A DNA stretch of 61,582 bases from Candidatus Anderseniibacteriota bacterium (GTDB lineage Bacteria; Patescibacteriota; Andersenbacteria; UBA10190), in the NCBI GenBank assembly GCA_040900375.1, contig JBBDZC010000014.1:33130-94711 (forward strand), given 5' to 3'. Every line of letters starts with the position of its first letter. Position 1 is the stretch's first letter. Under the pieces are notes generated by a model. That model searched no databases. It saw only the letters and a program-made list of their open reading frames with translations, and was not told the origin of the DNA. Below are positions 1,204 through 58,030 of the stretch, piece by piece. The position numbers and the translations under genes were made by a program.

Positions 1204-1311
1204 GTCAACCCATTCGACTCCACGGTCTAAAGGCCGTGGCTTGCTTAAGGGTTGACTCTAAAGCCGCGCGTATCTCCACCCTGACGGGTGGAGCTTGCGC
1301 GAGTCGAAGAG
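1204..1311 (+). repeat. 108-nt structured intergenic module (family A), copy 1
   Basis: Essentially identical to 40085-40192 (reverse strand) and 55870-55977. It contains four perfect helices arranged as a pseudoknot (see findings). Flanking sequence is unrelated between copies. Confidence 0.9.
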
Positions 1312-1460
1312 TCAAGCTTCGACGAGCTCAGCTTGACCCTGAGCCTGTCGAACGGGTCAAAAGCAAAAAACAAAAGAAAGCTTCTCCGGTGTCCTCGTAG
1401 AGAGCTGTTGCGAGTACCACAAAATTGTTGGGCCTTTAAAAGGCTTCTTAAAAAGAGTTT

Positions 1461-2828
1461 TTAAGGGCGGATTCGGACTCGCGCCGCTGTTCTGGTATCC
1501 CGACCGGTGGCGGCAATTTCTTGCAGAACGCACCATATACCCGTACAGGTATCCTGAAAGCCGTGGCGCTGCAAGGCTAATTCCCCTGCTCGCAGATGCC
1601 AGTTCGTAGGATTGCTGGTATCAATCATTGCGGCACGGGTTAATACTTGTCGCGCTTGTACTTCACTAGAACCGACCGTAGCCCACTCGCTACTATGACA
1701 TAGCCATAGACGAGGGCGGTCAATGGTAGGCATATAACAGTTATCATTGGCCGTAGGGTGAAAGATAGGGCGGGCTTCTCCTGGGACTTTTTCATAGCCA
1801 ATAGTCCCGTCGGGCAGGCGAAATGGCTTGGTTGCTAAACGGCTGCGTCGCTCCTCTTCCTGAAGAATTGCTGTTATACGGTCTTTAAAGGCTCCAGGAT
1901 CACTTTTGACCCCGAGAACAATATCATCGCCTGCGAACTGTACTGTCGCCCAAGAAGCGGTGGCCAATTCCGCCAATATATTAGGTCGGGTCAGTGTCAG
2001 GCCAAGTTTATGACGTATCAGCTCGTTCCATTTTGTCTGCAGGGCAGGTGGCACGCGCGCAAGCCATGCCCCAGGCACGGTCAACTCTACGACTGCGGTA
2101 TCAACGGTTGGTACAGAGGCAAGCCGCCCATGGTGAATCTCTTCCTGGCCCGAGAGAAACAGTAGGTGAACATCTTGCTGGTGAGCGCGTGCTACCAGGG
2201 TTAGAGACTGTGATAGAGATGGGATGACAGCAGGCCCACCTGCCGCCGGCGAGCCAGGCTCAATCACTACCACAGCCGCGGGCATGGTAGGCCACCGAGA
2301 CGCTACCAGCCGGGAAATATAGTCTTGTCCCGCTTCCGGCAACGTGGGCAGCCTTATCGCTTTTACCGCACTGGCTGGGCGATGGAGACGTAAGGCTAAA
2401 CCAAACCGTGTTACTTCCCACCCTTCCCTCTCCAGGTATTCGGCGATAGTTAACTGTTGTGTTAATCGCGGTATGAGAACCACTACCTGCTCGCCACCAT
2501 AATCTGCCCACGATAACTTAGTACTAGCCGGTACTAGTTCCTGGAGTTCCCCTGGTATATAGGGCATGAGTTGTGTGAGAAGCCGATTGTCGAGGCGGCC
2601 GATATCAAGCGCGGCCTGTATACGAGCTGGGGCTTGCCCGTCTGCCTGTCTGCCGGCAGGCCCGCCTGCCGGCGAGGCAGGCAACAACGCCCAGGTTAAC
2701 CACAGTGAGGTATTGAGGTACAGCAGCAATACCAGGAGCAAGGCTGGGAGACCGACCATAATGGCAATAAGCGAAGCTTTATGCCGGTTGCCTGCGGCAA
2801 GCTGGAGCGAGATTATATTATGGGGCAT
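1461..2828 (-). CDS. Membrane-anchored hypothetical protein
   Basis: 455-aa ORF with an N-terminal hydrophobic segment (LIAIMVGLPALLLVLLLYL) followed by a large soluble domain. It carries one intact and one degenerate copy of the in-frame PASPAGGPA palindromic insert. I recognise no family. Confidence 0.7.
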   Translation of the reverse strand: MPHNIISLQLAAGNRHKASLIAIMVGLPALLLVLLLYLNTSLWLTWALLPASPAGGPAGRQADGQAPARIQAALDIGRLDNRLLTQLMPYIPGELQELVPASTKLSWADYGGEQVVVLIPRLTQQLTIAEYLEREGWEVTRFGLALRLHRPASAVKAIRLPTLPEAGQDYISRLVASRWPTMPAAVVVIEPGSPAAGGPAVIPSLSQSLTLVARAHQQDVHLLFLSGQEEIHHGRLASVPTVDTAVVELTVPGAWLARVPPALQTKWNELIRHKLGLTLTRPNILAELATASWATVQFAGDDIVLGVKSDPGAFKDRITAILQEEERRSRLATKPFRLPDGTIGYEKVPGEARPIFHPTANDNCYMPTIDRPRLWLCHSSEWATVGSSEVQARQVLTRAAMIDTSNPTNWHLRAGELALQRHGFQDTCTGIWCVLQEIAATGRDTRTAARVRIRP

Positions 2829-2898: not shown

Positions 2899-5355
2899 TT
2901 AAAAGCCCGGAGGAGATGCTTGTGGGGAAGTAATTGGCGTGGAAGCAGGAGATAACTCAATGATGGCTTGAGCCTTAGGGCTGGTTGGATCTCCCTGAAT
3001 TGCTAAACCAAATGGCAAGCCGGTTTCGCCCATGCGCGGCGGCAAGAATTGCCGCAGGGCGGGGAGCTGCAGGGTACCAAGCACAATGTCATGACTGGCA
3101 GGGAGCGAGCCCCAGTTGGTGAGAAGAGTTTGCCAGTTTCCTCCCCTGGTCAGTGAGGCGGCGCGCTGGCCGATTGTATCAAGCAGTGTTAACATGCTGT
3201 CTTTTGAGGTGGTAATTAACAGATGGGTGTCAGTTACCGCATAATCCAAAGTCGTGGTTACACCGACAAGGTTAACATAGCGTAGTGGGGTGCCTTCATA
3301 GATTCTTTCGGTAAAAGTAAGGGGAGGAATAGTGCGTTGATCAATCAGCAACGGAATTAGAGCGGGCAACGCTTCTTCGAGCGCTGGTTCGCCGAGAGTC
3401 ACTTTACCCTGCAGGATAAGCGGCAGCTCAATAATGAAGCCTAAGGCTTGGTTTCCCCCGCCAATGGTAGCAGGCTGTCTGCCACTCTGGGGGCTTGGGG
3501 AAGAGAGGGGAGGAGATGAAGAGGGGGATCCGTAAGTAAAATAGGCATAAGGGCCAGTCAGCTGCGCGAATAATTGCTGAACGAGGGGACGCTGGAGAAT
3601 ATCAGCCTCAACTGTATTGGTCATTGTCAACCACTCCTCCACATCCTCAAAAAAGTTAGCTCCCAGACGGGCAACAGTAACTTGAGCAGGGATCAAAGAG
3701 AGTAGCTGCTGGTTAGTCGAGGTGGCGGGGATTACACTACGCGCAGTCGCTGTGCCTGACAGTTCGAGATTATTGGAGAATTTTCCAGCAAGAGCGAGTT
3801 TTTGGAGCTTGCCGGCTAAGAAGTGCTCGCCTGCCTCGCCGGCAGGCGGGCCCGCTATGTCCTGGCGGAGCGTCGGCAGAACACTCTCGCCCAAGATCAG
3901 GCGCAGCGGTGCCCCTATGCCAGTATCTTGCAGGAGAGATTCTCCTCCCTGACTAGCGACAGTGCCCGCCGCTAGGGCTAAGAGGTAGGGATCGACCGTC
4001 AGTGGATGCACAATATACCAGCCTTCATACTCGACATAGTGGGCATCGCTATTCTCCTGCAGATTTTCTGTTAGAGCGGCAGTTTGGGGCACAACCAGGA
4101 AAGGCCGCGTCGAATCGGCAAGCGTTACATAGTAAAATTCTTCGATGTCAGAATCACTCAAGAGCAGACGGGGGTCGCCAGCAAGTAAGGTAGTAAAGCT
4201 TGCCTGGCTTGGAGCCGACTGAACTTGATTAGTCCAGGCGGCATTAATGTCACTGCGATCTTGGGCTGATTCCAGACGATATTGGACAATAATAAGGCTG
4301 TCACTAGGAAGCACTTGGACGGCGACGGCTGGTTGGCCTGGTTCAGGCGCAAAAGGATTATTCTCTTGGAAATAGAAAAACCAGGCTGCTGCTCCCCCAC
4401 CTGTCAGTAGGAGGAGAAAAATAATCAAGAAGAGTACTCTGGTAAGCCCGCGCCGTCGCCGCTTGCCAATGGGCGCCATCACCACTTTTTGAATATCGCT
4501 ACCTTGGGGGGGTAGGGGGAAGACACGGGGACTGCTGGCCGGCTGATCGGTCGGCTTAGCAGGCGGAGAGGCGGGCCTGCCTGCCGGCGAGGCGGGCACA
4601 GGGGGAACGGGAGAGAACCCCTGTTTTGCTTGTGCTCTAGGATCTTGACTTAATGGTCTTGGTGGAGCGGGTGCGCGAGCTTCACTGCTTTGTGGAGAGG
4701 GCGATGAGCGACCTTGTTTAATATCGTTAATGTCATCAACCATAGTGCGGATGACAATTTCTTCGGCCTGCCTGCTTGCTTGCCCGTCAGCCAGCTCGGG
4801 CAGACTAGTAGTAGATGGGTAGGTGGGGCGGCGAGCCGCAGGGCGAGCTGCACCGCTGGCAGGAATCTCGCTTGGGGCGGAGGACGGTACGGGCCCCGTT
4901 GATGTGTTGCCTACAGGTGAGAGCCGCTCCTGTTGTCGAACGGCTAATGGGGTGGGTGGCGGAGGAAGAGTCTTTACTGGCAGCGGGCCTCCGGGGTGTC
5001 CCTGGGCCTGCAGGGCAGGCTTGTCTACTTGCTTGTTGGCAGATAAACTCGGGCGGGCGGGCCCGCCTGCCGGCGAGGCAGGCCAGGTTGGTAAACCAGA
5101 TATATGCCCATACGAACTCTTTTGGGGGCTCCCTGATGAGGGAAGCTTAGTTGGTGAGAAGGGGGCGGGGCGAGCGCTATGCGGTCGCCCAACACTAATC
5201 TCACTATTGTCAGGCTGCCCTGCACCAGTCGTGCTTCTGGGCCTCTGTCTCCCCGGCTTGCCGGTTGCCTGGCCACCCGTGAGAGGCAAGCGAGGTGGTT
5301 TGGGCGGAACGGGCGGTGGGTACGAGCGGCGGATAGGCACAGATTGATCCTCCAT
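2899..5355 (-). CDS. Large single-pass membrane protein with a Pro/Ser/Ala-rich disordered N-terminus
   Basis: 818-aa ORF. About 300 aa of low-complexity N-terminus precede one TM segment (VLFLIIFLLLLTGGGAAAWFFYF) and a roughly 480-aa C-terminal domain. It contains three copies of the 24-nt palindrome, one of them inverted. Confidence 0.7.
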   Translation of the reverse strand: MEDQSVPIRRSYPPPVPPKPPRLPLTGGQATGKPGRQRPRSTTGAGQPDNSEISVGRPHSARPAPFSPTKLPSSGSPQKSSYGHISGLPTWPASPAGGPARPSLSANKQVDKPALQAQGHPGGPLPVKTLPPPPTPLAVRQQERLSPVGNTSTGPVPSSAPSEIPASGAARPAARRPTYPSTTSLPELADGQASRQAEEIVIRTMVDDINDIKQGRSSPSPQSSEARAPAPPRPLSQDPRAQAKQGFSPVPPVPASPAGRPASPPAKPTDQPASSPRVFPLPPQGSDIQKVVMAPIGKRRRRGLTRVLFLIIFLLLLTGGGAAAWFFYFQENNPFAPEPGQPAVAVQVLPSDSLIIVQYRLESAQDRSDINAAWTNQVQSAPSQASFTTLLAGDPRLLLSDSDIEEFYYVTLADSTRPFLVVPQTAALTENLQENSDAHYVEYEGWYIVHPLTVDPYLLALAAGTVASQGGESLLQDTGIGAPLRLILGESVLPTLRQDIAGPPAGEAGEHFLAGKLQKLALAGKFSNNLELSGTATARSVIPATSTNQQLLSLIPAQVTVARLGANFFEDVEEWLTMTNTVEADILQRPLVQQLFAQLTGPYAYFTYGSPSSSPPLSSPSPQSGRQPATIGGGNQALGFIIELPLILQGKVTLGEPALEEALPALIPLLIDQRTIPPLTFTERIYEGTPLRYVNLVGVTTTLDYAVTDTHLLITTSKDSMLTLLDTIGQRAASLTRGGNWQTLLTNWGSLPASHDIVLGTLQLPALRQFLPPRMGETGLPFGLAIQGDPTSPKAQAIIELSPASTPITSPQASPPGF

Positions 5356-11858: not shown

Positions 11859-12082
11859 AAACGAAAATCGCTTGGGTTATAGTTATATTAAAATACAGCA
11901 TACCATACCTAGGGTGCTTTAAAAAAGCAAATTGGCTCACTCGAGCTTGGTGAATAACTTCAGTAGCGAGCGGGTCGTGGCAGCACCTGCCCACGCTTCG
12001 CCGGAGGCTTTGGCGAGGCCTGCACCCCCGTCCGACCCGCCTTCGCTTCGGCAGGGCAGGCGGCTTTGACCCGGTGTGCCCA

Positions 12083-12134
12083 CCGGGACAGTGACAAAGC
12101 CCTTCATCCTCGGGCTTACGGGCTCCAGATAAAA
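12083..12134. repeat. 52-nt conserved non-coding motif (family D), copy 1
   Basis: ccgggacagtgacaaagcccttcatcctcgggcttacgggctccagataaa recurs at 33935-33986 with one substitution. It lies in the 337-nt ORF-free gap upstream of rpsO. Confidence 0.85.
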
Positions 12135-12543: not shown

Positions 12544-13452
12544 ATGACTGCCTCCTTGAAACAACTCCATACTGACTTTTTAGAAGATCTCGAAATAGGT
12601 CAGGGGCGATCACAGAAGACGATTGCTAATTACGATCATTATCTGCAACGCTTTTACCACCAGGAAGCAATTAAAAGCATTAGCGATATTACCCTGGAAG
12701 CCGTGCGCCGTTTCCGTCGGCATTTAAACGAATCTCAAACTGGCGGGTTATCACTGGCCACGCAAAACTATCACTTAATTGCCGTGCGTCAGTTCCTTAA
12801 ATACCTAGCAAAACGTGACTTCCCCGCCCTCTCGCCCGAAAAGATTGGTTTAGCCAAGCTGCACGAGCGGGTCATTGATGTGCTCTATCCCGAGGAAGTC
12901 GAAATACTCCTCCGGGCCCCTAATGCTGCGACGCTTGAAGGAGCGCGGGATCAGGCCATTGTCTATATTCTCTTTTCGACGGGGCTGCGTATTGCCGAAG
13001 CCACCAGTCTTAACCGCGACGATATTCGGACTAACAGCAAGGAAATTCCCGTCCGGGGTAAAGGCAATAAGGTGCGCGTCGTCTTTCTTTCGCCGGAGGC
13101 TCACGACAGCGTTAAAGATTACGTCGCCAAGCGCATGGACACCGATCCAGCTCTCTTTATTCGCCACAAGAAAGGTTCGGTTGGGCCTGATGATGACCTC
13201 CGGCTCACTCCCCGGAGCATTCAGCGGCTGATTAAGAAATATGCGGCTAAGGCGGGCTTAACCAAAGACATTACCCCCCACACCCTGCGCCACTCTTTTG
13301 CCACAGATCTCTTAAGCAATGGCGCTGATGTCCGAGAAGTCCAACAACTCTTAGGCCACTCCTCGATTACCACGACGCAAATTTATACGCACTTAACCGA
13401 TGTTCACCTCCACCAAGTCCACGAGAAATATCACCGCAAGAAGAGCGCTTAA
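12544..13452 (+). CDS. Tyrosine recombinase, XerC/XerD family
   Basis: 302-aa ORF with an N-terminal SAM-like domain and catalytic motifs (LRIAEATSL, HTLRHSFAT, LLGHSSITTTQIYTH). It could be the chromosome dimer resolvase or an integrase. Confidence 0.9.
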   Translation: MTASLKQLHTDFLEDLEIGQGRSQKTIANYDHYLQRFYHQEAIKSISDITLEAVRRFRRHLNESQTGGLSLATQNYHLIAVRQFLKYLAKRDFPALSPEKIGLAKLHERVIDVLYPEEVEILLRAPNAATLEGARDQAIVYILFSTGLRIAEATSLNRDDIRTNSKEIPVRGKGNKVRVVFLSPEAHDSVKDYVAKRMDTDPALFIRHKKGSVGPDDDLRLTPRSIQRLIKKYAAKAGLTKDITPHTLRHSFATDLLSNGADVREVQQLLGHSSITTTQIYTHLTDVHLHQVHEKYHRKKSA

Positions 13453-17350: not shown

Positions 17351-17430
17351 AGAGTCAGTAGTGGATTAAGATTTGAGTGTAGTATATGAGCTTTCGCCTG
17401 CAATATTCCAGTAATGGAAGCGTTGGTCAA

Positions 17431-17566
17431 CCCCGTTAGCCGTTCGACCCCGCTGCTCGACAACCCCGAGCTCGTAGCCGAGGGGAGCTTTAGGGTCGAG
17501 GGGAGCCAGGCCGCCCCAAGCGGCCGTAGCTGTCCCGCATAGCGGGAGGGCAGGTCTCTAACGGGG
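17431..17566. mobile_element. MITE-like element (family B), long variant, in the clpC upstream region
   Basis: The termini CCCCGTTAG (17431-17439) and CTAACGGGG (17558-17566) are perfect inverted repeats. They are flanked by a direct TCAA at 17427-17430 and 17567-17570. Confidence 0.65.
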
Positions 17567-17604
17567 TCAAGAACGTTTAGGTACAAGTATTAAGTTAGGT
17601 AAAG

Positions 17605-33818: not shown

Positions 33819-33934
33819 TCGTAGGATCACCATACTGAAATTCAGCCGCACACGCAAAGTAGTGCCTTATAAAAGTCACTACGGGTATAAGCCCGTGGTA
33901 TCGGGGGACTTTTGTCTGCGGCGTGCCGGCTCCG

Positions 33935-33986
33935 CCGGGACAGTGACAAAGCCCTTCATCCTCGGGCTTACGGACTCCAGATAAAG
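33935..33986. repeat. 52-nt conserved non-coding motif (family D), copy 2
   Basis: ccgggacagtgacaaagcccttcatcctcgggcttacggactccagataaa matches 12083-12134. It lies about 115 nt from the 5' end of tRNA-Pro. Confidence 0.85.
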
Positions 33987-34718: not shown

Positions 34719-34761
34719 GGTATGGCAGTCCTTATGTGATGGATTCAAAGAACAGGTATCA

Positions 34762-34837
34762 CCCCGTTAGAAGTAAGCCGTCTCTTGTGAGCGGCTGCCG
34801 CCCCCGCTTTGCGCGGGAAGGGGGACTTCTAACGGGG
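34762..34837. mobile_element. MITE-like element (family B), short variant, abutting the tRNA-Ala(CGC) 3' end
   Basis: The termini are CCCCGTTAG (34762-34770) and CTAACGGGG (34829-34837). The interior is homologous to the copy at 49265-49337, with one compensatory stem change. No clear target duplication is present at this copy. Confidence 0.6.
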
Positions 34838-34908
34838 TGGACCTGGGCGGAATCGGACCGCCGCCTCGGCAATGCGAATGCCGTGTTATACCACTTAACT
34901 ACAGGCCC
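34838..34908 (-). tRNA. tRNA-Ala(CGC)
   Basis: Manual cloverleaf: acceptor GGGCCTG/CAGGTCC with the G3:U70 alanine identity pair, anticodon loop TTCGCAT. Confidence 0.9.
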
Positions 34909-39979: not shown

Positions 39980-40084
39980 GGGATATCAGAAGTCTCCCCC
40001 GCGCGGACTCCGCGAGGTCAGCGTATATAATAAAAGCACTTGGCAAAACATGTACAACCCAACCCTTTCAATAATTTCTTTTGG

Positions 40085-40192
40085 CTCTTCGACTCGCGCA
40101 AGCTCCACCCGTCAGGGTGGAGATACGCGCGGCTTTAGAGTCAACCCTTAAGCAAGCCACGGCCTTTAGACCGTGGAGTCGAATGGGTTGAC
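40085..40192 (-). repeat. 108-nt structured intergenic module (family A), copy 2
   Basis: The reverse complement is identical to 1204-1311 over 108 nt. Confidence 0.9.
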
Positions 40193-40197
40193 AACAA

Positions 40198-40246
40198 ATG
40201 AAGCCGCCCCCGCCGCTGGCGGCGGGGGATTCACGGGGTGCAATAA
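40198..40246 (-). repeat. Intergenic box family C, copy 4
   Basis: ATGAAGCC-GCCCCCGCCGCTGGCGGCGGGGG-ATTCACGGGGTGCAATAA, located 5 nt from family A copy 2. Confidence 0.75.
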
Positions 40247-40298
40247 GCTGTGGTATACTGACCAAACGTTGGTTTAAGTATCTGACTTTTATTTACGC

Positions 40299-41102
40299 AT
40301 GTCCTCTCGCATTGCCTCGTTTATCAGGGCTATCATTCTCTTCCTCTTGCCGTTAGTCGTGCTCGGCTGGACCTCCATCCCTTCTCTGTCAGAGTACAGC
40401 GTGCACTTGGCCATGGTAGTTTTATTGGTGGTCATTGGCCTGTCGTTTGTCAAAAAAGACAGCTTGCAATTAACCAAAGTATCGCTGCAGACACTGACGA
40501 TTTTACTCCTGGTCGGTGCCACGGGCTGGTTTTTCTCGCCCTTTTTCTTCTTGTTGTACCTCGTGCCGCTTTATTTAGGCTTCCTGTATAATCCTTTGGT
40601 CGCCTTTGCCTTCCTCGCGGCCCTGCTGGTAATTTTCTCGTTTAGTGTGGGTGAGATTGATGCCGCCTACGATATTATGACGCTGCTCTCGCTCTTACTG
40701 GTTATTCCGCTCGTTATTTACCTGCGCAAAAAATATTTGATTCTGCGGCAATCACACAAAGACATTCTTATTTTGGAAGCAGATAGCGGCATTAAAAGCG
40801 TCGACACTATCGCCTATCTCTTAAACAACCGGGTCACTAACCTAGGAGTCACCGTGCGTCAGCCATTGACGTATATTAAACAAGCGGCAACGGTGTTGCT
40901 GGAAGAAGATTTAAATTTAGAAGAGGCTACTAATTATGTTGAGCGCATTCGTACAACGGCAACAGAAGCCCTTGATCATGTCCGTAAATTTGAAGGGGAC
41001 ACGTCAGCTAATGCGGTTTTGACGAATGAAAAAAAGGAGGTCCTAAATCAGGTCCCCTCCGCTCGCCCGGCTGCTCAAAATAGTGTTCGTAAGCCTTCTT
41101 AA
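40299..41102 (+). CDS. Multi-pass membrane protein with a degenerate HisKA-like C-terminal helical domain (no ATPase domain, no phospho-acceptor His)
   Basis: 267-aa ORF with about 5 TM helices. The sequence ...NRVTNLGVTVRQPLTYIKQAATVLLEE... aligns by eye to the H-box (sHELRTPLtsI) but has Val where the His should be. The ORF ends before any N/G1/G2 boxes. Confidence 0.6.
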   Translation: MSSRIASFIRAIILFLLPLVVLGWTSIPSLSEYSVHLAMVVLLVVIGLSFVKKDSLQLTKVSLQTLTILLLVGATGWFFSPFFFLLYLVPLYLGFLYNPLVAFAFLAALLVIFSFSVGEIDAAYDIMTLLSLLLVIPLVIYLRKKYLILRQSHKDILILEADSGIKSVDTIAYLLNNRVTNLGVTVRQPLTYIKQAATVLLEEDLNLEEATNYVERIRTTATEALDHVRKFEGDTSANAVLTNEKKEVLNQVPSARPAAQNSVRKPS

Positions 41103-41111
41103 GACCTACCT

Positions 41112-41525
41112 ATGGCCAAGAAAGTTCTGATTGTTGAAGACGATCAATTTATTCGCGAAATGTACGCGCTGATCCTGCGCAAGCGTCAGTACGAGGTTGT
41201 TGAGTCAGCGGATGGCGCTGTCGGCTTAGTCGAGGCGCGAAAAGGTGGCTTTGATATTATCTTGCTCGATCTTATGATGCCCCAGATGGATGGTTTAGGT
41301 TTTTTGCGAGAGCTCCAGAAACAACCCGCGAAAATACCCAATGGACCGATCATTGTCATGTCGAATTTGGCGTATAGCGACGCGAAAGAGGAGGCCATCA
41401 AACTGGGGGCGAAAGACTTCTTAGTCAAAGCTGATCTTGATCCCAAAGATGTCCTCGGCATTGTGGAAAAGGCGCTGGGGGATAGCGACAAGTTGACCCA
41501 TTCAACTAGTTCAGAGTCAAGCTGA
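41112..41525 (+). CDS. Stand-alone response-regulator receiver domain (CheY-like)
   Basis: 137-aa ORF: KVLIVEDDQFIREMY...FDIILLDLMMPQMDGLGFL...IIVMSNL...KLGAKDFLVK. Confidence 0.9.
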   Translation: MAKKVLIVEDDQFIREMYALILRKRQYEVVESADGAVGLVEARKGGFDIILLDLMMPQMDGLGFLRELQKQPAKIPNGPIIVMSNLAYSDAKEEAIKLGAKDFLVKADLDPKDVLGIVEKALGDSDKLTHSTSSESS

Positions 41526-41639
41526 AGCCTGTCGAAGCTTGACAAAGTAAGACCAACGAGAGTACCGTACAGAGCATCAGATTCCGCGGTGAGCCCGCGG
41601 AATTCTCATATTGACTTCTTAAAGATAGCAGATAGGCAT

Positions 41640-48841: not shown

Positions 48842-48856
48842 AATAAGTCGCCAGTA

Positions 48857-48916
48857 ATGAAGCCGCCCTGATCCCCCGCCGCTGGCGGCAGGGGATTTTA
48901 CGGGGTGCAATAAAAA
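48857..48916 (-). repeat. Intergenic box family C, copy 5
   Basis: ATGAAGCCGCCCTGA-TCCCCCGCCGCTGGCGGCAGGGGA-TTTTACGGGGTGCAATAAAAAA. Confidence 0.75.
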
Positions 48917-49185: not shown

Positions 49186-49264
49186 AGAACATCTCCATCA
49201 TTAAGTGGTCAAAGAACTTACGGTAGACTGTCCTGGTAGTACAGGGAACGAGGCTCGGTGTCAA

Positions 49265-49337
49265 CCCCGTTAGCAGTCCGCCTTCCCGCGCAAAGCGGCG
49301 GCGGCCGCTCACAAGAGGCGGCTTACTTCTAACGGGG
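49265..49337. mobile_element. MITE-like element (family B), short variant
   Basis: The termini are CCCCGTTAG (49265-49273) and CTAACGGGG (49329-49337). They are flanked by a direct TCAA at 49261-49264 and 49338-49341. The right-hand TCA is the stop codon of the downstream gene read on the reverse strand. Confidence 0.7.
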
Positions 49338-50093
49338 TCAACAGTATCGTCTAATCAGAGCTAAGCTCTCAGTTAAATGATCGCGGTGCTGGACAAGGTC
49401 GAACCGGGCGCCGGGTTCAAGCGTTATGCTAATCTCCTGTTGCTGGCTTTGTTGACGCAGTGCGCCTAAAAACTCGGGCCAATTAAGGTCACCGGTTCCC
49501 GGAAAGAGATGCTCAACCTGATCCTTGCGAGCATAATCGCTGACGTGCACGTGCCGCAGCCGTTGATTAAGTAAGCCGATATATTGGGTTGGATCTTCAT
49601 TCCAGGCAGCTACATGGGTCGTATCCAGCGTCGCGGCTACCTCGTGCTGGACAATATCGAGAAGCCAGTAGCGTGGCGCACGATACGCTTGTTGTAGCTC
49701 GTGAACTGGCGTCTTGGGACGCGACAGTACCTCGCAAGCAATGGTGCACCGATGCAGGACAGCATAATTCTTCAGTAAGTGCAGTCCTTGATGCACGTTC
49801 ATGGCTCCGCCACAACTAGGATGAGCCGAGGGCGGATGAATGGTCACTAACGTAGCTCCGAGTTGCCCTGCGACCGCCACTGCATCCTTCAGCGCCTGGG
49901 AAAAACGCGGAGAGTCATAATAATCGAGCGGCGCATGCACCGCATAGACATGGGTTAGGCCGTCGTAGTTGACTGGTGCCATTCTTTTGATGCGCGAGGG
50001 CATCACTACCTCAATGCCATCAAAACCCAGTTCGAGCGCGATTGCTTCAACCGCTTGCGGAGGGTGGGTCCGCGTCGAAAGTAAAACCTTCAT
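49338..50093 (-). CDS. Sugar phosphate isomerase/epimerase (xylose isomerase-like TIM barrel)
   Basis: 251-aa ORF: ...FDGIEV..., ...LVTIHPPS..., ...HVHVSDY...FPGTGDLNWPEFLGAL. Confidence 0.75.
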   Translation of the reverse strand: MKVLLSTRTHPPQAVEAIALELGFDGIEVVMPSRIKRMAPVNYDGLTHVYAVHAPLDYYDSPRFSQALKDAVAVAGQLGATLVTIHPPSAHPSCGGAMNVHQGLHLLKNYAVLHRCTIACEVLSRPKTPVHELQQAYRAPRYWLLDIVQHEVAATLDTTHVAAWNEDPTQYIGLLNQRLRHVHVSDYARKDQVEHLFPGTGDLNWPEFLGALRQQSQQQEISITLEPGARFDLVQHRDHLTESLALIRRYC

Positions 50094-53197: not shown

Positions 53198-53572
53198 TTA
53201 GAATTCCAACTTTCGTCCTTTATAGTTCATAGCCTCATTTAGAAACAATTGTTCACCCTTACTGCTGTGTTTAATAGTGTGACAGTTTGCACAAAGAAGG
53301 ACACACTTTTGCATTTCTAACTTAATGGCATCCCAACTCTTATTGGCAACATTACCAATAATAAAATCCTTTTTACTGGGGTCCAAGTGATGGAATTGCA
53401 AGGCAGCCTGATTACCATGCCACCCACATTCCACGCATTTACCACCTAAATACTTAATAGCAGCAGCTTTAGACCGGTACCTTCTAATTTTTGTATTGCA
53501 AGATCCGCACCGAGTTCTCAATTTACCTTGGTAATCTTTAAAGGTTTTCCCACATAATTTACAGAGATCCAT
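53198..53572 (-). CDS. Free-standing HNH endonuclease
   Basis: 124-aa ORF with CxxC...CxxC Zn knuckles, ...CVECGWHGNQAALQFHHLDPSKKDF... and LLCANCHTIKH. The gene and its flanks (about 53000-53670) are visibly more AT-rich than the neighbouring genes. Confidence 0.85.
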   Translation of the reverse strand: MDLCKLCGKTFKDYQGKLRTRCGSCNTKIRRYRSKAAAIKYLGGKCVECGWHGNQAALQFHHLDPSKKDFIIGNVANKSWDAIKLEMQKCVLLCANCHTIKHSSKGEQLFLNEAMNYKGRKLEF

Positions 53573-53674
53573 AACATCTAGTATAGCACGTTAGGATCTA
53601 CCAAAAATACTCTATTTCGGAAGAAACTTTGAAATAAATCTATTTTTCGCTATGCTCTAACAACAATTAAATAT

Positions 53675-53951
53675 GCCGCGGTAGCTCACCGGTAGAGCGC
53701 TGCCCTAAACTCTTTGGGGCCTCCCGCCGTAAGGTGGGATGACAAAACTGGGTGAACTCGGGGAAACTCTTGCTGATACAAGACAATCCCGAGCCAAGCT
53801 AGGAAGGGTTTGAGTTTCCTAGAAGGTGTAGAGACTAGTGAGTGAGTCCCAACAATACCCTCACATAAGCGCCCAGCTCCCTTCGTTGGGATGATGAGAT
53901 AGTCCGATTCGGAAGAGGCAGGCGTAGTCAGTTCGATTCTGACCCGCGGCA
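53675..53951 (+). tRNA. tRNA-Phe(GAA) interrupted by a group I intron between positions 33 and 34
   Basis: The 5' exon (53675-53706) is GCCGCGG-TA-GCTC-ACCGGTA-GAGC-G-CTGCC-CT. The 3' exon (53912-53951) is GAAGA-GGCAG-GCGTA-GTCAG-TTCGATT-CTGAC-CCGCGGC-A. Joined together they give a canonical 72-nt cloverleaf with anticodon loop CUGAAGA. Confidence 0.85.
53707..53911 (+). ncRNA. Group I intron, 205 nt, without an ORF
   Basis: P1 pairs exon GCCCU with the internal guide GGGGC, placing a U:G pair at the 5' splice site, and the intron ends in G. The conserved R-like (gtagAGACTAGtg) and S-like (gaGATAGTCCg) core elements form P7 (GACTA/TAGTC). P2 (CCCGCC/GGTGGG), P3 (CTGGG/CCCAG), P4 (CTCGGG/CCCGAG), P6 (CTAGGAA/TTCCTAG), P8 (GTGAG/CTCAC) and P9 (TCCC/GGGA) can all be drawn. 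Confidence 0.85.
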
Positions 53952-55783: not shown

Positions 55784-55869
55784 GGTTTCTCCTTAAAAAA
55801 TGAACAACTCTCACAGTGAGATCCTCATCTATAAACTCTCTGGTATAGTTTGTCACGGCGGCATTAGGA

Positions 55870-55977
55870 GTCAACCCATTCGACTCCACGGTCTAAAGGC
55901 CGTGGCTTGCTTAAGGGTTGACTCTAAAGCCGCGCGTATCTCCACCCTGAAGGGTGGAGCTTGCGCGAGTCGAAGAG
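55870..55977 (+). repeat. 108-nt structured intergenic module (family A), copy 3
   Basis: Identical to copy 1 except for one base in the terminal loop of the fourth helix (tgaA versus tgaC). Confidence 0.9.
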
Positions 55978-56046
55978 TCAACTTTCCCGGCCGTTATTTC
56001 GTCTACCGCGATGCAGGAGGGGTGTTTTCGCTGGGGAGTGGGTATA

Positions 56047-56075
56047 TTGACCAATAAGCAAAAATGTGATATAAT
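56047..56075 (+). promoter_or_regulatory. Strong sigma70-type promoter with extended -10
   Basis: TTGACC (56047-56052), a 17-nt spacer ending in TGa, then TATAAT (56070-56075), 54 nt upstream of the ATG at 56129. Confidence 0.7.
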
Positions 56076-57523: not shown

Positions 57524-58030
57524 TTGTATGTTCGTTTACTGTTTGGTACACTTTACATTGTGAAGAAGAGGTCGTGGACTGTTAAACAACTACAAGAAGC
57601 AGTAAAGAGCTCCTTTAGTTATCGGCAAGTTATTACCAAGTTAGGCCTTCGTCCAGCAGGTGGTAATTACGCACAGCTTCAGAAATATATCCTGGAGAAT
57701 AATCTAGATATTGCACACTTCAAGGGACGCGGTTGGAACTTAGGGTTACGCGGAATTGGCAAACCACGTGTAGCGCTTGATCAAGTGCTCTGTAAGAATA
57801 GTTCTTTCCAGAGCTATAAGGTAAAGCATCGCTTATTTGCGGCGGGCCTTAAACCACAGTATTGCGAACTATGTGGTTGGACAAAAAGAAGTCCAAATGG
57901 GTATCTGCCTTTAGAACTTGATCACATCAATGGTGATAGGACTGACAATAGATTAGAAAACTTGCGAATTTTGTGTCCGAATTGCCACAGTATGACTGAT
58001 AACTATCGTAGCCGTCCACGAACAAGATAA
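57524..58030 (+). CDS. HNH endonuclease wedged between two tRNA genes
   Basis: 168-aa ORF with the C-terminal HNH motif CELCGW....LELDHINGDRTDNRLENLRILCPNCH. It starts 16 nt after tRNA-Cys, and its stop codon (58028-58030) directly abuts tRNA-Leu(UAA). Confidence 0.85.
   Translation: MYVRLLFGTLYIVKKRSWTVKQLQEAVKSSFSYRQVITKLGLRPAGGNYAQLQKYILENNLDIAHFKGRGWNLGLRGIGKPRVALDQVLCKNSSFQSYKVKHRLFAAGLKPQYCELCGWTKRSPNGYLPLELDHINGDRTDNRLENLRILCPNCHSMTDNYRSRPRTR

Follow-up and report, generated by a model that had tools for sequence, protein, structure and literature searches.

Short intergenic repeats of a Candidatus Anderseniibacteriota bacterium as members of a family of very small, probably mobile DNA elements with GTCAA boundaries and an internal loop complementary to both ends

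The DNA analysed here (the window) is a 61,582-nt stretch of contig JBBDZC010000014.1 (positions 33,130 to 94,711, forward strand; GenBank assembly GCA_040900375.1) from a Candidatus Anderseniibacteriota bacterium, in which a short, structured repeat, hereafter the element, occupies three intergenic sites (Table 1). Repeat search and word matching across the 61.6 kb recover exactly the three near-identical copies that an earlier note, made from the sequence alone, had reported as a putative RNA module. Words of 20–22 nt taken from the unit have three matches each at ≤3 mismatches, where none is expected, and by this test there is no diverged fourth 112-nt copy in the window. The start of the unit is as first described, but its 3′ limit is not: the shared sequence runs 4 nt past the proposed 108-nt unit, which is thus 112 nt long, from GTCAACCC to GAGTCGAAGAG(T/C)CAA. 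Similarly, the single loop-base difference between copies is accurate within the first 108 nt (position 81, in the loop of hairpin HP2, reads C/C/A across copies 1/2/3), whereas over 112 nt there is a second difference at position 109 (T/C/T). The near-identity of the three copies implies a spread in this genome that was probably recent.

All copies lie in non-coding gaps, as had been stated: copy 1 beyond the 3′ end of the open reading frame (ORF) 1461-2828(-), copy 2 antisense between yraN and ORF 40299-41102, and copy 3 between two divergently transcribed genes, on the upstream side of a promoter predicted for the downstream gene at 56047-56075. They are 15–39 kb apart, on both strands, and have no common relation to genes. 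ORFs 40068..40265 and 55800..56057 are mere read-through of the repeat, as the earlier note had it, and a search of the protein collection with the peptide common to both gave no homologue. Exact-protein matching placed the same organism in SRR27977660 (Logan) only, where its short-read contigs break off ~30 nt into each copy, the usual outcome for a sequence present several times in a genome. A Pfam scan of the window identifies a XerC/D-like recombinase (12544-13452) and two HNH proteins.

The window NusA is 79–86% identical to those of Candidatus Andersenbacteria metagenome-assembled genomes (MAGs) of the candidate phyla radiation (CPR). Genes for an ATPase, YraN, NusA, and IF2 adjoin one another in 14 Andersenbacteria-like relatives, with yraN directly before nusA. 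Compared with these, the window has ~1.6 kb extra between yraN and nusA (39980-41588), a segment that opens with copy 2, is bounded by copy 2 and a mini element (D2), both on the minus strand, and holds the membrane-protein ORF 40299-41102 and a response regulator (41112-41525). The repeat was not found by nhmmer or blastn-short in 697 kb of DNA, mostly around nusA homologues and including the 14 close relatives.

Table 1. Coordinates of the element, its parts, its relatives, and a second repeat family; positions are those of the window unless a locus is named.
Feature	Coordinates	Strand	Remarks
Element copy 3, A type, 112 nt	55870..55981	+	repeat search, word matches, profile nhmmer E=8e-21; includes left GTCAA (target or duplication)
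Left boundary pentanucleotide GTCAA	55870..55874	+	target motif or left copy of a 5-bp duplication; in all family members
CCC	55875-55877	+	with left GTCAA, 5′ strand of P1 of the earlier note
TTCGAC, outer stem 5′ strand (P2 core)	55879..55884	+	pairs with GTCGAA 55969-55974; 100% paired, invariant because the retrieval pattern fixed both
HP1 hairpin (P3 of the earlier note), CCACGGTC-TAAA-GGCCGTGG	55886..55905	+	accessory; subfamily-variable; not in mini forms
Central hairpin, weak stem GCTTAAG/CTAAAGC	55909..55930	+	anatomy and covariation
10-nt loop GGGTTGACTC, proposed internal guide	55915-55924	+	complementary to GTCAACCC (left boundary) and GAGTCAA (right end)
HP2 hairpin (P4 of the earlier note plus extension), CGCGCG..CTCCACCC-TGAA-GGGTGGAG..TGCGCG	55930..55967	+	accessory; carries the single variable loop base
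GTCGAA (outer stem 3′ strand), then GA (N'N', covaries with loop), then terminal GTCAA	55969..55981	+	
Element copy 1, A type, 112 nt	1204..1315	+	profile nhmmer and repeat search
Element copy 2, A type, 112 nt	40081..40192	-	right terminus mutated to GCCAA, giving an A.C mismatch with the loop
Mini element D1, 50 nt	1311..1360	+	GTCAAG-C-TTCGAC-GA-GCTCAG-CTTGACC-CTGAGC-CT-GTCGAA-CGG-GTCAA; abuts copy 1, terminal GTCAA in common
Mini element D2, 51 nt	41493..41543	-	between response-regulator gene and nusA; nhmmer E=5.5e-6 against D1
Second short structured family	49260-49342(+), 34757-34846(-), 17426-17572(+); L020 3157-3233		9-bp terminal inverted repeats CCCCGTTAG/CTAACGGGG

Relatives were retrieved from metagenomes with a pattern that fixed the termini only (GTCAACNNNTTCGAC-N{70,100}-GTCGAANNGTCAA), which yielded 30 loci in 21 distinct flank contexts. 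These are not chance matches, since the central motif CAGGGTTGACNNTGAG, which is not in the pattern, is present in 25 of the 30 and the profile E-values range from 1e-9 to 5e-30. The nearest relative of the window copies (L075) is 84% identical. Host contigs have GC contents of 0.38–0.59, and one host is named ‘Deltaproteobacteria bacterium GWA2_57_13’ in NCBI; the family occurs in unrelated bacteria, in CPR as well as in a Deltaproteobacterium-like lineage. The genes that flank the metagenome members are unrelated housekeeping genes, in inconsistent orientation. Copies also stand in tandem with one GTCAA between them, as do the two mini elements of L060 and, in the window, copy 1 and D1. In two contigs (L069 472-584 and L071 7857-7959) the 5′ end of the element lies ~80 nt upstream of an M48 peptidase gene, the products of which are 61% identical; the L071 copy is without the guide loop, and these elements reflect either an old common insertion or repeated insertion.

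Other searches extended the family no further. The exact 20-mers GGGTTGACTCTAAAGCCGCG and CCACGGTCTAAAGGCCGTGG have no match in viral contigs, nor does GGGTTGACTCTAAAGCCGCG in the genome or metagenome collections; it follows that the subfamily of the window is either rare or collapsed during assembly. Viral contigs matched neither the termini pattern nor one built on the central loop, blastn against phages and plasmids returned nothing relevant, and the 120 matches of the 14-base left end in viral contigs are attributable to chance, because in none is the rest of the element there. There is no autonomous or longer element with the family ends in the DNA collected. Pairs of the form TCAA...TCAA that enclose inverted repeats number 4–5, vs. 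1.1 expected and a shuffle maximum of 5, a weak signal taken alone. Neither sequence-word nor topic searches of the literature turned up a description of the family, and Rfam 15 has no entry for it.

The elements share the layout GTCAA^C-CC-N-TTCGAC-(HP1)-CTT-GCTCA-(GGG TTGAC NN)-TGAGC-(HP2)-GTCGAA-N'N'-GTCAA, with the caret at the left boundary. HP1 and HP2 are hairpins in every full-length member, with sequences that vary by subfamily; the HP1 loop reads TAAA, ACA, TTAAAG, and others. HP1 is not present in L067, and both hairpins are gone from the mini elements of L060 (two in tandem), D1, and D2. Because HP1 and HP2 are dispensable, the minimal unit is one imperfect hairpin of ~47–52 nt with a 10-nt loop, composed of a 6-bp stem (TTCGAC/GTCGAA, here P2), a short central stem, and the loop GGG-TTGAC-NN. 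The 112-nt window copies are this minimal unit plus two accessory hairpins.

Covariation was assessed in an alignment of 24 sequences (A1). The 3′ part of the loop, TTGAC-NN, is 99.4% paired with N'N'-GTCAA at the right end; the variable column pairs read GC12/AU6/UA3/CG2/UG1 and CG12/GC11/GU1, with four Watson–Crick combinations for NN/N'N', and the right-tip dinucleotide of each subfamily (CC, GT, GA, or GG) changes together with the loop. The 5′ part of the loop, GGGTTGAC, is 99.5% paired with the left boundary GTCAACCC across the 24 members (the helix P1), with compensatory C:G to G:C swaps at position 6 (D1 and D2) and position 8 (L067). Covariation is stronger for the pairing of loop and 3′ end than for P1. 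P2 is always paired in the family, but both of its strands were set by the retrieval pattern, so that this is no independent test.

The left and right loop pairings are mutually exclusive on one loop, because TTGAC is common to both. Taken together they match the junction N'N'GTCAA^CCC, which is physically present where elements abut (L060; copy 1/D1), and the loop is complementary to the full would-be junction at 10 of 10 bases. A rod of ~14 bp separates the loop of the mini form from its own tails. Loop and ends may pair in trans, within an alternative conformer, or in an intermediate that is circular or tandem. Mismatches of the G.T and A.C types are equally frequent (5 vs. 5), so that single copies seem to decay neutrally, and strand-specific selection at the RNA level is not apparent.

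The element in contig L062 overlaps the hemL stop codon, and homologues of the HemL encoded there, with their contigs, were compared at the hemL–atpI spacer. In L095, L096 (both with HemL 95% identical to the query), and L098 (86%) the spacer is empty, 35 nt long, and contains one TTGAC (...gaaggTTGA^CCCTCAGCGC, also written ...gaaggTTGA^CCCTCAGCGCAATTCC), and a fourth contig has the gene spacing of the empty sites, judged by gene coordinates only. In L062, L085-87, L091, and L094, with HemL 97–100% identical, the spacer is filled and 143–144 nt long, reading ...TTGAC-GGTTCGAC...GTCGAATGGG-TTGAC-CCTCA, i.e., TTGAC-GG-TTCGAC...GTCGAA-TGGG-TTGAC-CCTCA. The flanks are otherwise the same in empty and filled contigs, and a 108–109-nt element was therefore inserted at the single TTGAC, the complement of GTCAA. 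Insertion thus occurs at GTCAA, which then stands on both sides, and presence and absence at the same site are seen among closely related strains. Among the results that would count against its reading, the earlier note had named consistent target-site duplications in other genomes as the mark of a purely DNA-level mobile repeat; one vs. two copies of TTGAC is what this spacer displays, and it is the decisive evidence here. In the window, GTCAA likewise stands on both sides of the A copies, D1, and D2, in which it was not constrained by the pattern, except at the right terminus of copy 2 (GCCAA). At four independent loci, hemL included, the TGA stop of the convergent gene falls inside the terminal GTCAA, so that insertion leaves the gene intact. 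As in miniature inverted-repeat transposable elements (MITEs), multiple copies exist: three in 61.6 kb with one to two differences, and 21 distinct metagenome sites.

Some filled spacers contain extra nested pieces (183 and 208 nt: L084, L089; L088, L090, L092, L093). One variant has 39 nt (TGGTTCGACCTTGCTCACCATCCTGAGCTTGTCGAAGGG) added inside the HP1 loop; another has 25 nt added in the central loop, immediately following GTCAACCC. Since a second GTCAA flanks neither piece, they are not canonical insertions.

The unit is predicted to fold much more stably than shuffled sequence, with z = -6.5 (plus strand) and -6.3 (minus strand) for RNA and -5.0 and -5.3 for DNA. The four helices drawn in the earlier note are all perfect Watson–Crick complements (C17 and G98 are each used twice in the drawing). 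A competing helix, 49-55 (TTGACTC) with 106-112 (GAGTCAA), was not listed there, nor was the central stem that surrounds the GGGTTGACTC loop; the former is present in the RNA minimum-free-energy fold and arises because GTCAA stands at both ends and its complement TTGAC in the middle of the element. P1 is within the RNA minimum-free-energy fold for 8 of 12 family members. The second helix does cross the first, in the order P1, P2, P3, P1', P4, P2', and this pairing is kept across the family: the crossing strand order is real, because P1 is 99.5% paired, P2 is paired, and P3 and P4 stay hairpins despite sequence change.

This is also the strand order of self-cleaving ribozymes of the hepatitis delta virus (HDV) type, from which a self-cleaving function had been suggested; the order stands, the function is not supported. 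The module was said to match no RNA family, and in agreement Rfam 15 gives no match at the gathering score on the repeat in the window, nor on the element at any of 19 homologous loci. The HDV, twister, pistol, hatchet, and hammerhead models, which had been proposed as a check, are all silent at E ≤ 10 on 55800-56050, where the only matches at that level, to mir-564 (29 bits) and RNAI (22 bits), are sub-threshold noise. The G1.U wobble at the end of a 7-bp P1 is not found: G1 pairs with C, as had been recognised (column 1/column 57, G-C in 24 of 24). A 3-bp P3 with P1.1 is not found either. P3, drawn with 6 bp in the earlier note, is HP1, which has 7–8 bp and a variable loop and is gone in L067, L060, D1, and D2. 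The conserved J4/2 C is not found: the junction leading into the outer-stem 3′ strand is 0–5 nt, with A, C, or T (A1 column 113). Mini members are without P3 and P4, and the 3′ terminus is a second partner for the 3′ strand of P1, with stronger covariation there than for P1. Substitutions in homologues, another check that had been proposed, do preserve the helices, with P1 99.5% paired through compensatory changes; almost all conserved bases are in helices, hence there is no conserved unpaired core. The HDV-like strand order results from a subterminal inverted repeat (P2) combined with a guide loop that pairs with the left boundary (P1), and on these sequence features an assignment of the three repeats to HDV-like ribozymes is not supported. 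Other candidates were rejected, namely a hammerhead (CUGANGG instead of CUGANGA; no model match), a cis-regulatory leader or terminator (inconsistent gene context, no T run), and integron attC, CRISPR, retron, or diversity-generating retroelement repeats (wrong architecture).

That the repeat is a mobile DNA element targeting GTCAA is very likely. Its copies probably belong to a family of mobile DNA elements that are very small, non-autonomous, and without coding capacity, the boundaries of which are read by internal guide pairing, as in IS200/IS605. In IS200/IS605 elements, internal guide sequences read the cleavage sites by base pairing (PMC3201880); the guides covary with the motifs at flank and terminus, and derivatives without genes, the palindrome-associated transposable elements (PATEs), are known (PMC10055086). 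By the logic of this single-strand ‘peel-and-paste’ system, in which flanking and terminal motifs pair with internal guides, the loop may serve as an internal DNA guide through which the GTCAA target and both cleavage sites are offered to a transposase that acts in trans; all 10 bases of the loop would pair with N'N'GTCAACCC, the junction formed when right end and left end are joined. Mobilisation would be in trans because the element has no gene, and no host role would be needed to explain the copies. A single-strand mechanism of the IS200/IS605 kind is a serious possibility that falls just short of being probable. A bolder reading, which we consider unlikely, is that a ~47–52-nt hairpin, the loop of which splints its own ends and selects GTCAA, is moved by an enzyme other than the known IS200/IS605 TnpA, possibly one of the host, and is spread over distant phyla including CPR, so that these would be the smallest members of a new class of nucleic-acid-guided mobile elements.

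Several observations count against a guide-paired element of the IS200/IS605 kind. No transposase, reverse transcriptase, or HUH gene was identified by Pfam in the window, or beside the homologues, and tblastn of an IS200 TnpA sequence against 2 Mb of collected DNA, a small part of any host genome, gave no match. An IS200/IS605 element uses two guides, one on the 5′ side of the foot of each subterminal hairpin, vs. one guide in a central hairpin loop here, and its similar imperfect palindromes near both ends are TnpA-bound, whereas HP1 and HP2 are unlike one another and dispensable. Invariance of GTCAAC, TTCGAC, GTCGAA, and GTCAA among the retrieved loci is an ascertainment effect, as these were set by the retrieval pattern, and the empty/filled polymorphism was seen for the GG/CC subfamily in a Deltaproteobacterium, not for the subfamily of the window. 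A 5-bp duplication by a DDE transposase is indistinguishable from insertion 3′ of GTCAA by an element ending in GTCAA. Finally, the active intermediate may be single-stranded DNA, RNA, or duplex DNA.

The ambiguity of the duplication leaves room for an ordinary DDE-type MITE, the duplex ends of which would be recognised for cut-and-paste or copy-out, with 5-bp staggered cuts duplicating GTCAA, and with the internal complementarity a by-product, e.g., of self-nesting. The empty site does contain a single GTCAA and the filled site two; the 6-bp inverted repeat TTCGAC/GTCGAA lies near both ends; and the second window family has true 9-bp terminal inverted repeats beside GTCAA in two of three copies. 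In IS3-type copy-out circles a bridge of the length of the duplication lies between the ends, and such circles would give the same junction N'N'GTCAACCC. However, the inverted repeat of the element is subterminal, the right-tip dinucleotide changes with the loop, which is unpredicted for a protein-read terminus, a fixed 5-bp target is unusual for DDE elements, and no autonomous partner with these ends is present in the DNA collected. We regard a DDE-type MITE as improbable.

A folded single-strand or site-specific recombination element is more improbable still. Here the circular junction N'N'GTCAACCC and the loop GGGTTGACNN would form a duplex site that a recombinase exchanges with GTCAA targets; integron attC sites, the folded attP of phage CTX, and the donor-binding loop of the IS110 bridge RNA would be its analogues. 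The loop complements the whole junction at 10 of 10 bases and the junction is real in the L060 tandem; the GTCAA core at both boundaries resembles attL/attR; and a gene for a XerC/D-like tyrosine recombinase is in the window. With GTCAA^C as crossover, exchange would take place after AA and before C, its position in the attC core RYYYAA^C. Yet known tyrosine-recombinase sites are far longer than a duplex of 10–11 bp, the attC consensus exceeds GTCAAC/GTTGAC by one base, the copies are scattered in both orientations with no array beside an integrase, the window recombinase looks like an ordinary chromosomal Xer protein, and no circular form was seen. A functional RNA, whether a structured small RNA or a self-cleaving ribozyme (HDV-like or new), perhaps carried by a mobile element, would account for helices kept with compensatory changes, for a very stable predicted fold, and for conservation that begins exactly at G1; HDV-like ribozymes do occur at the 5′ junction of some retroelements. 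This is nevertheless extremely improbable: the Rfam ribozyme models are silent at E ≤ 10, the HDV-defining features fail with no conserved unpaired core, minis of 47–52 nt lack P3 and P4, G.T pairs are not commoner than A.C mismatches, no reverse transcriptase is nearby, and orientation and gene distance are inconsistent, copy 3 being upstream of the predicted promoter of its downstream gene.

The second short structured family (Table 1) has GTCAA on both sides in two of its three window copies; one copy abuts the 3′ end of tRNA-Ala. Its 147-nt copy has a different interior, and a similar element occurs in a distant CPR MAG (L020). There is no internal TTGAC loop in the elements of this second family. 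A GC-rich hairpin repeat of ~50 nt (AATGAAGCCG..CCCCCGCCGCTGGCGGCGGGGGATTCACGGGGTGCAATAA) has two copies, one beside element copy 2 (40197-40246(+)) and one a short way downstream of the RNase Y gene (48856-48913(+)). A 54-nt direct repeat (12080-12133 and 33932-33985, 96% identical) lies ~400 nt from the XerC/D-like gene 12544-13452 at its first site and ~115 nt from tRNA-Pro at its second. At 53673-53950 a tRNA gene is apparently split by a group I intron (53697-53921(+); Rfam Intron_gpI, 52.8 bits), the flanks of which read as tRNA halves GCCGCGGTAGCTCACCGGTAGAGCGC and GTAGTCAGTTCGATTCTGACCCGCGGCA; an HNH endonuclease ORF (53198-53572(-)) adjoins it, and a quick trial of ARAGORN on the joined tRNA exons gave no call. 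A further HNH endonuclease ORF (57524-58030(+)) lies between tRNA-Cys and tRNA-Leu. Positions 1-205 of the window contain tandem 55-nt repeats, and GC-rich 31-nt repeats encode PAGGPAG-like peptide motifs inside ORFs 1461-2828(-) and 2899-5355(-), both without a Pfam match.

A ribozyme candidate is hereby replaced by a concrete, testable family of mobile elements, polymorphic between closely related strains and following a simple NN–N'N' covariation rule, from which the ends appear to be read by base pairing with the internal loop. The family could lead to its mobilising enzyme. Because the elements break short-read assemblies and make spurious ORFs, their recognition also improves MAG annotation.

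PATEs, the derivatives of IS200/IS605 that are moved as single-stranded DNA by the Y1 HUH transposase TnpA, resemble the family in being short, non-coding, and hairpin-rich, in inserting beside a specific 4–5-nt motif, with a similar motif as the element end and precise restoration of the flank, and in having both motifs pair and covary with internal guides (PMC3201880, PMC10055086), although in the family this is a single guide in a hairpin loop. They differ in that the minimal unit of the family is only ~47–52 nt and no TnpA was found in the window or beside homologues; moreover, IS200/IS605 guides pair over 4–5 nt with non-canonical contacts, vs. 7–8 bp of Watson–Crick pairing here. The fit to IS200/IS605 thus appears to be one of logic, not of membership. 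HDV-like ribozymes (Rfam HDV_ribozyme, HDV-F-prausnitzii, drz) share the strand order and the start of conservation at a G, but their G.U pair, 3-bp P3, P1.1, and J4/2 C contrast with G1-C, a P3 of 7–8 bp, and neither of the last two. Integron attC sites and CTX phage attP(+) also contain two inverted core copies that pair in one strand, with crossover beside AAC/GTT; the attC core RYYYAAC/GTTRRRY is one base longer, whereas the duplex of the family is 10 bp and its copies are scattered with no cassette array, and Pfam identified no integron integrase adjacent to the window copies. The donor-binding loop of the IS110/IS1111 bridge (seek) RNA is similar in that an internal loop complements the joined ends around a target-common core, a pairing likewise found via loop–boundary covariation; bridge RNAs are, however, ~150–200 nt with two internal loops, in recombinase-encoding elements of 1.2–1.6 kb, whereas here the whole element is 47–115 nt with one hairpin loop and no gene. 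Classical MITEs (Correia of Neisseria, ERIC, RUP) are, like the family, ~100–150 nt, intergenic, multi-copy, and near-identical per genome, in both orientations, with stable folds and a short flanking duplication, but have true terminal inverted repeats read by a DDE transposase, in place of a subterminal 6-bp repeat, and no internal loop that covaries with the tips; the target or duplication of the family is, furthermore, a fixed pentanucleotide. In kind, the family belongs with the known small non-autonomous bacterial transposable elements; what is new is the single loop guide complementary to both ends, the small size, and the fixed pentanucleotide target.

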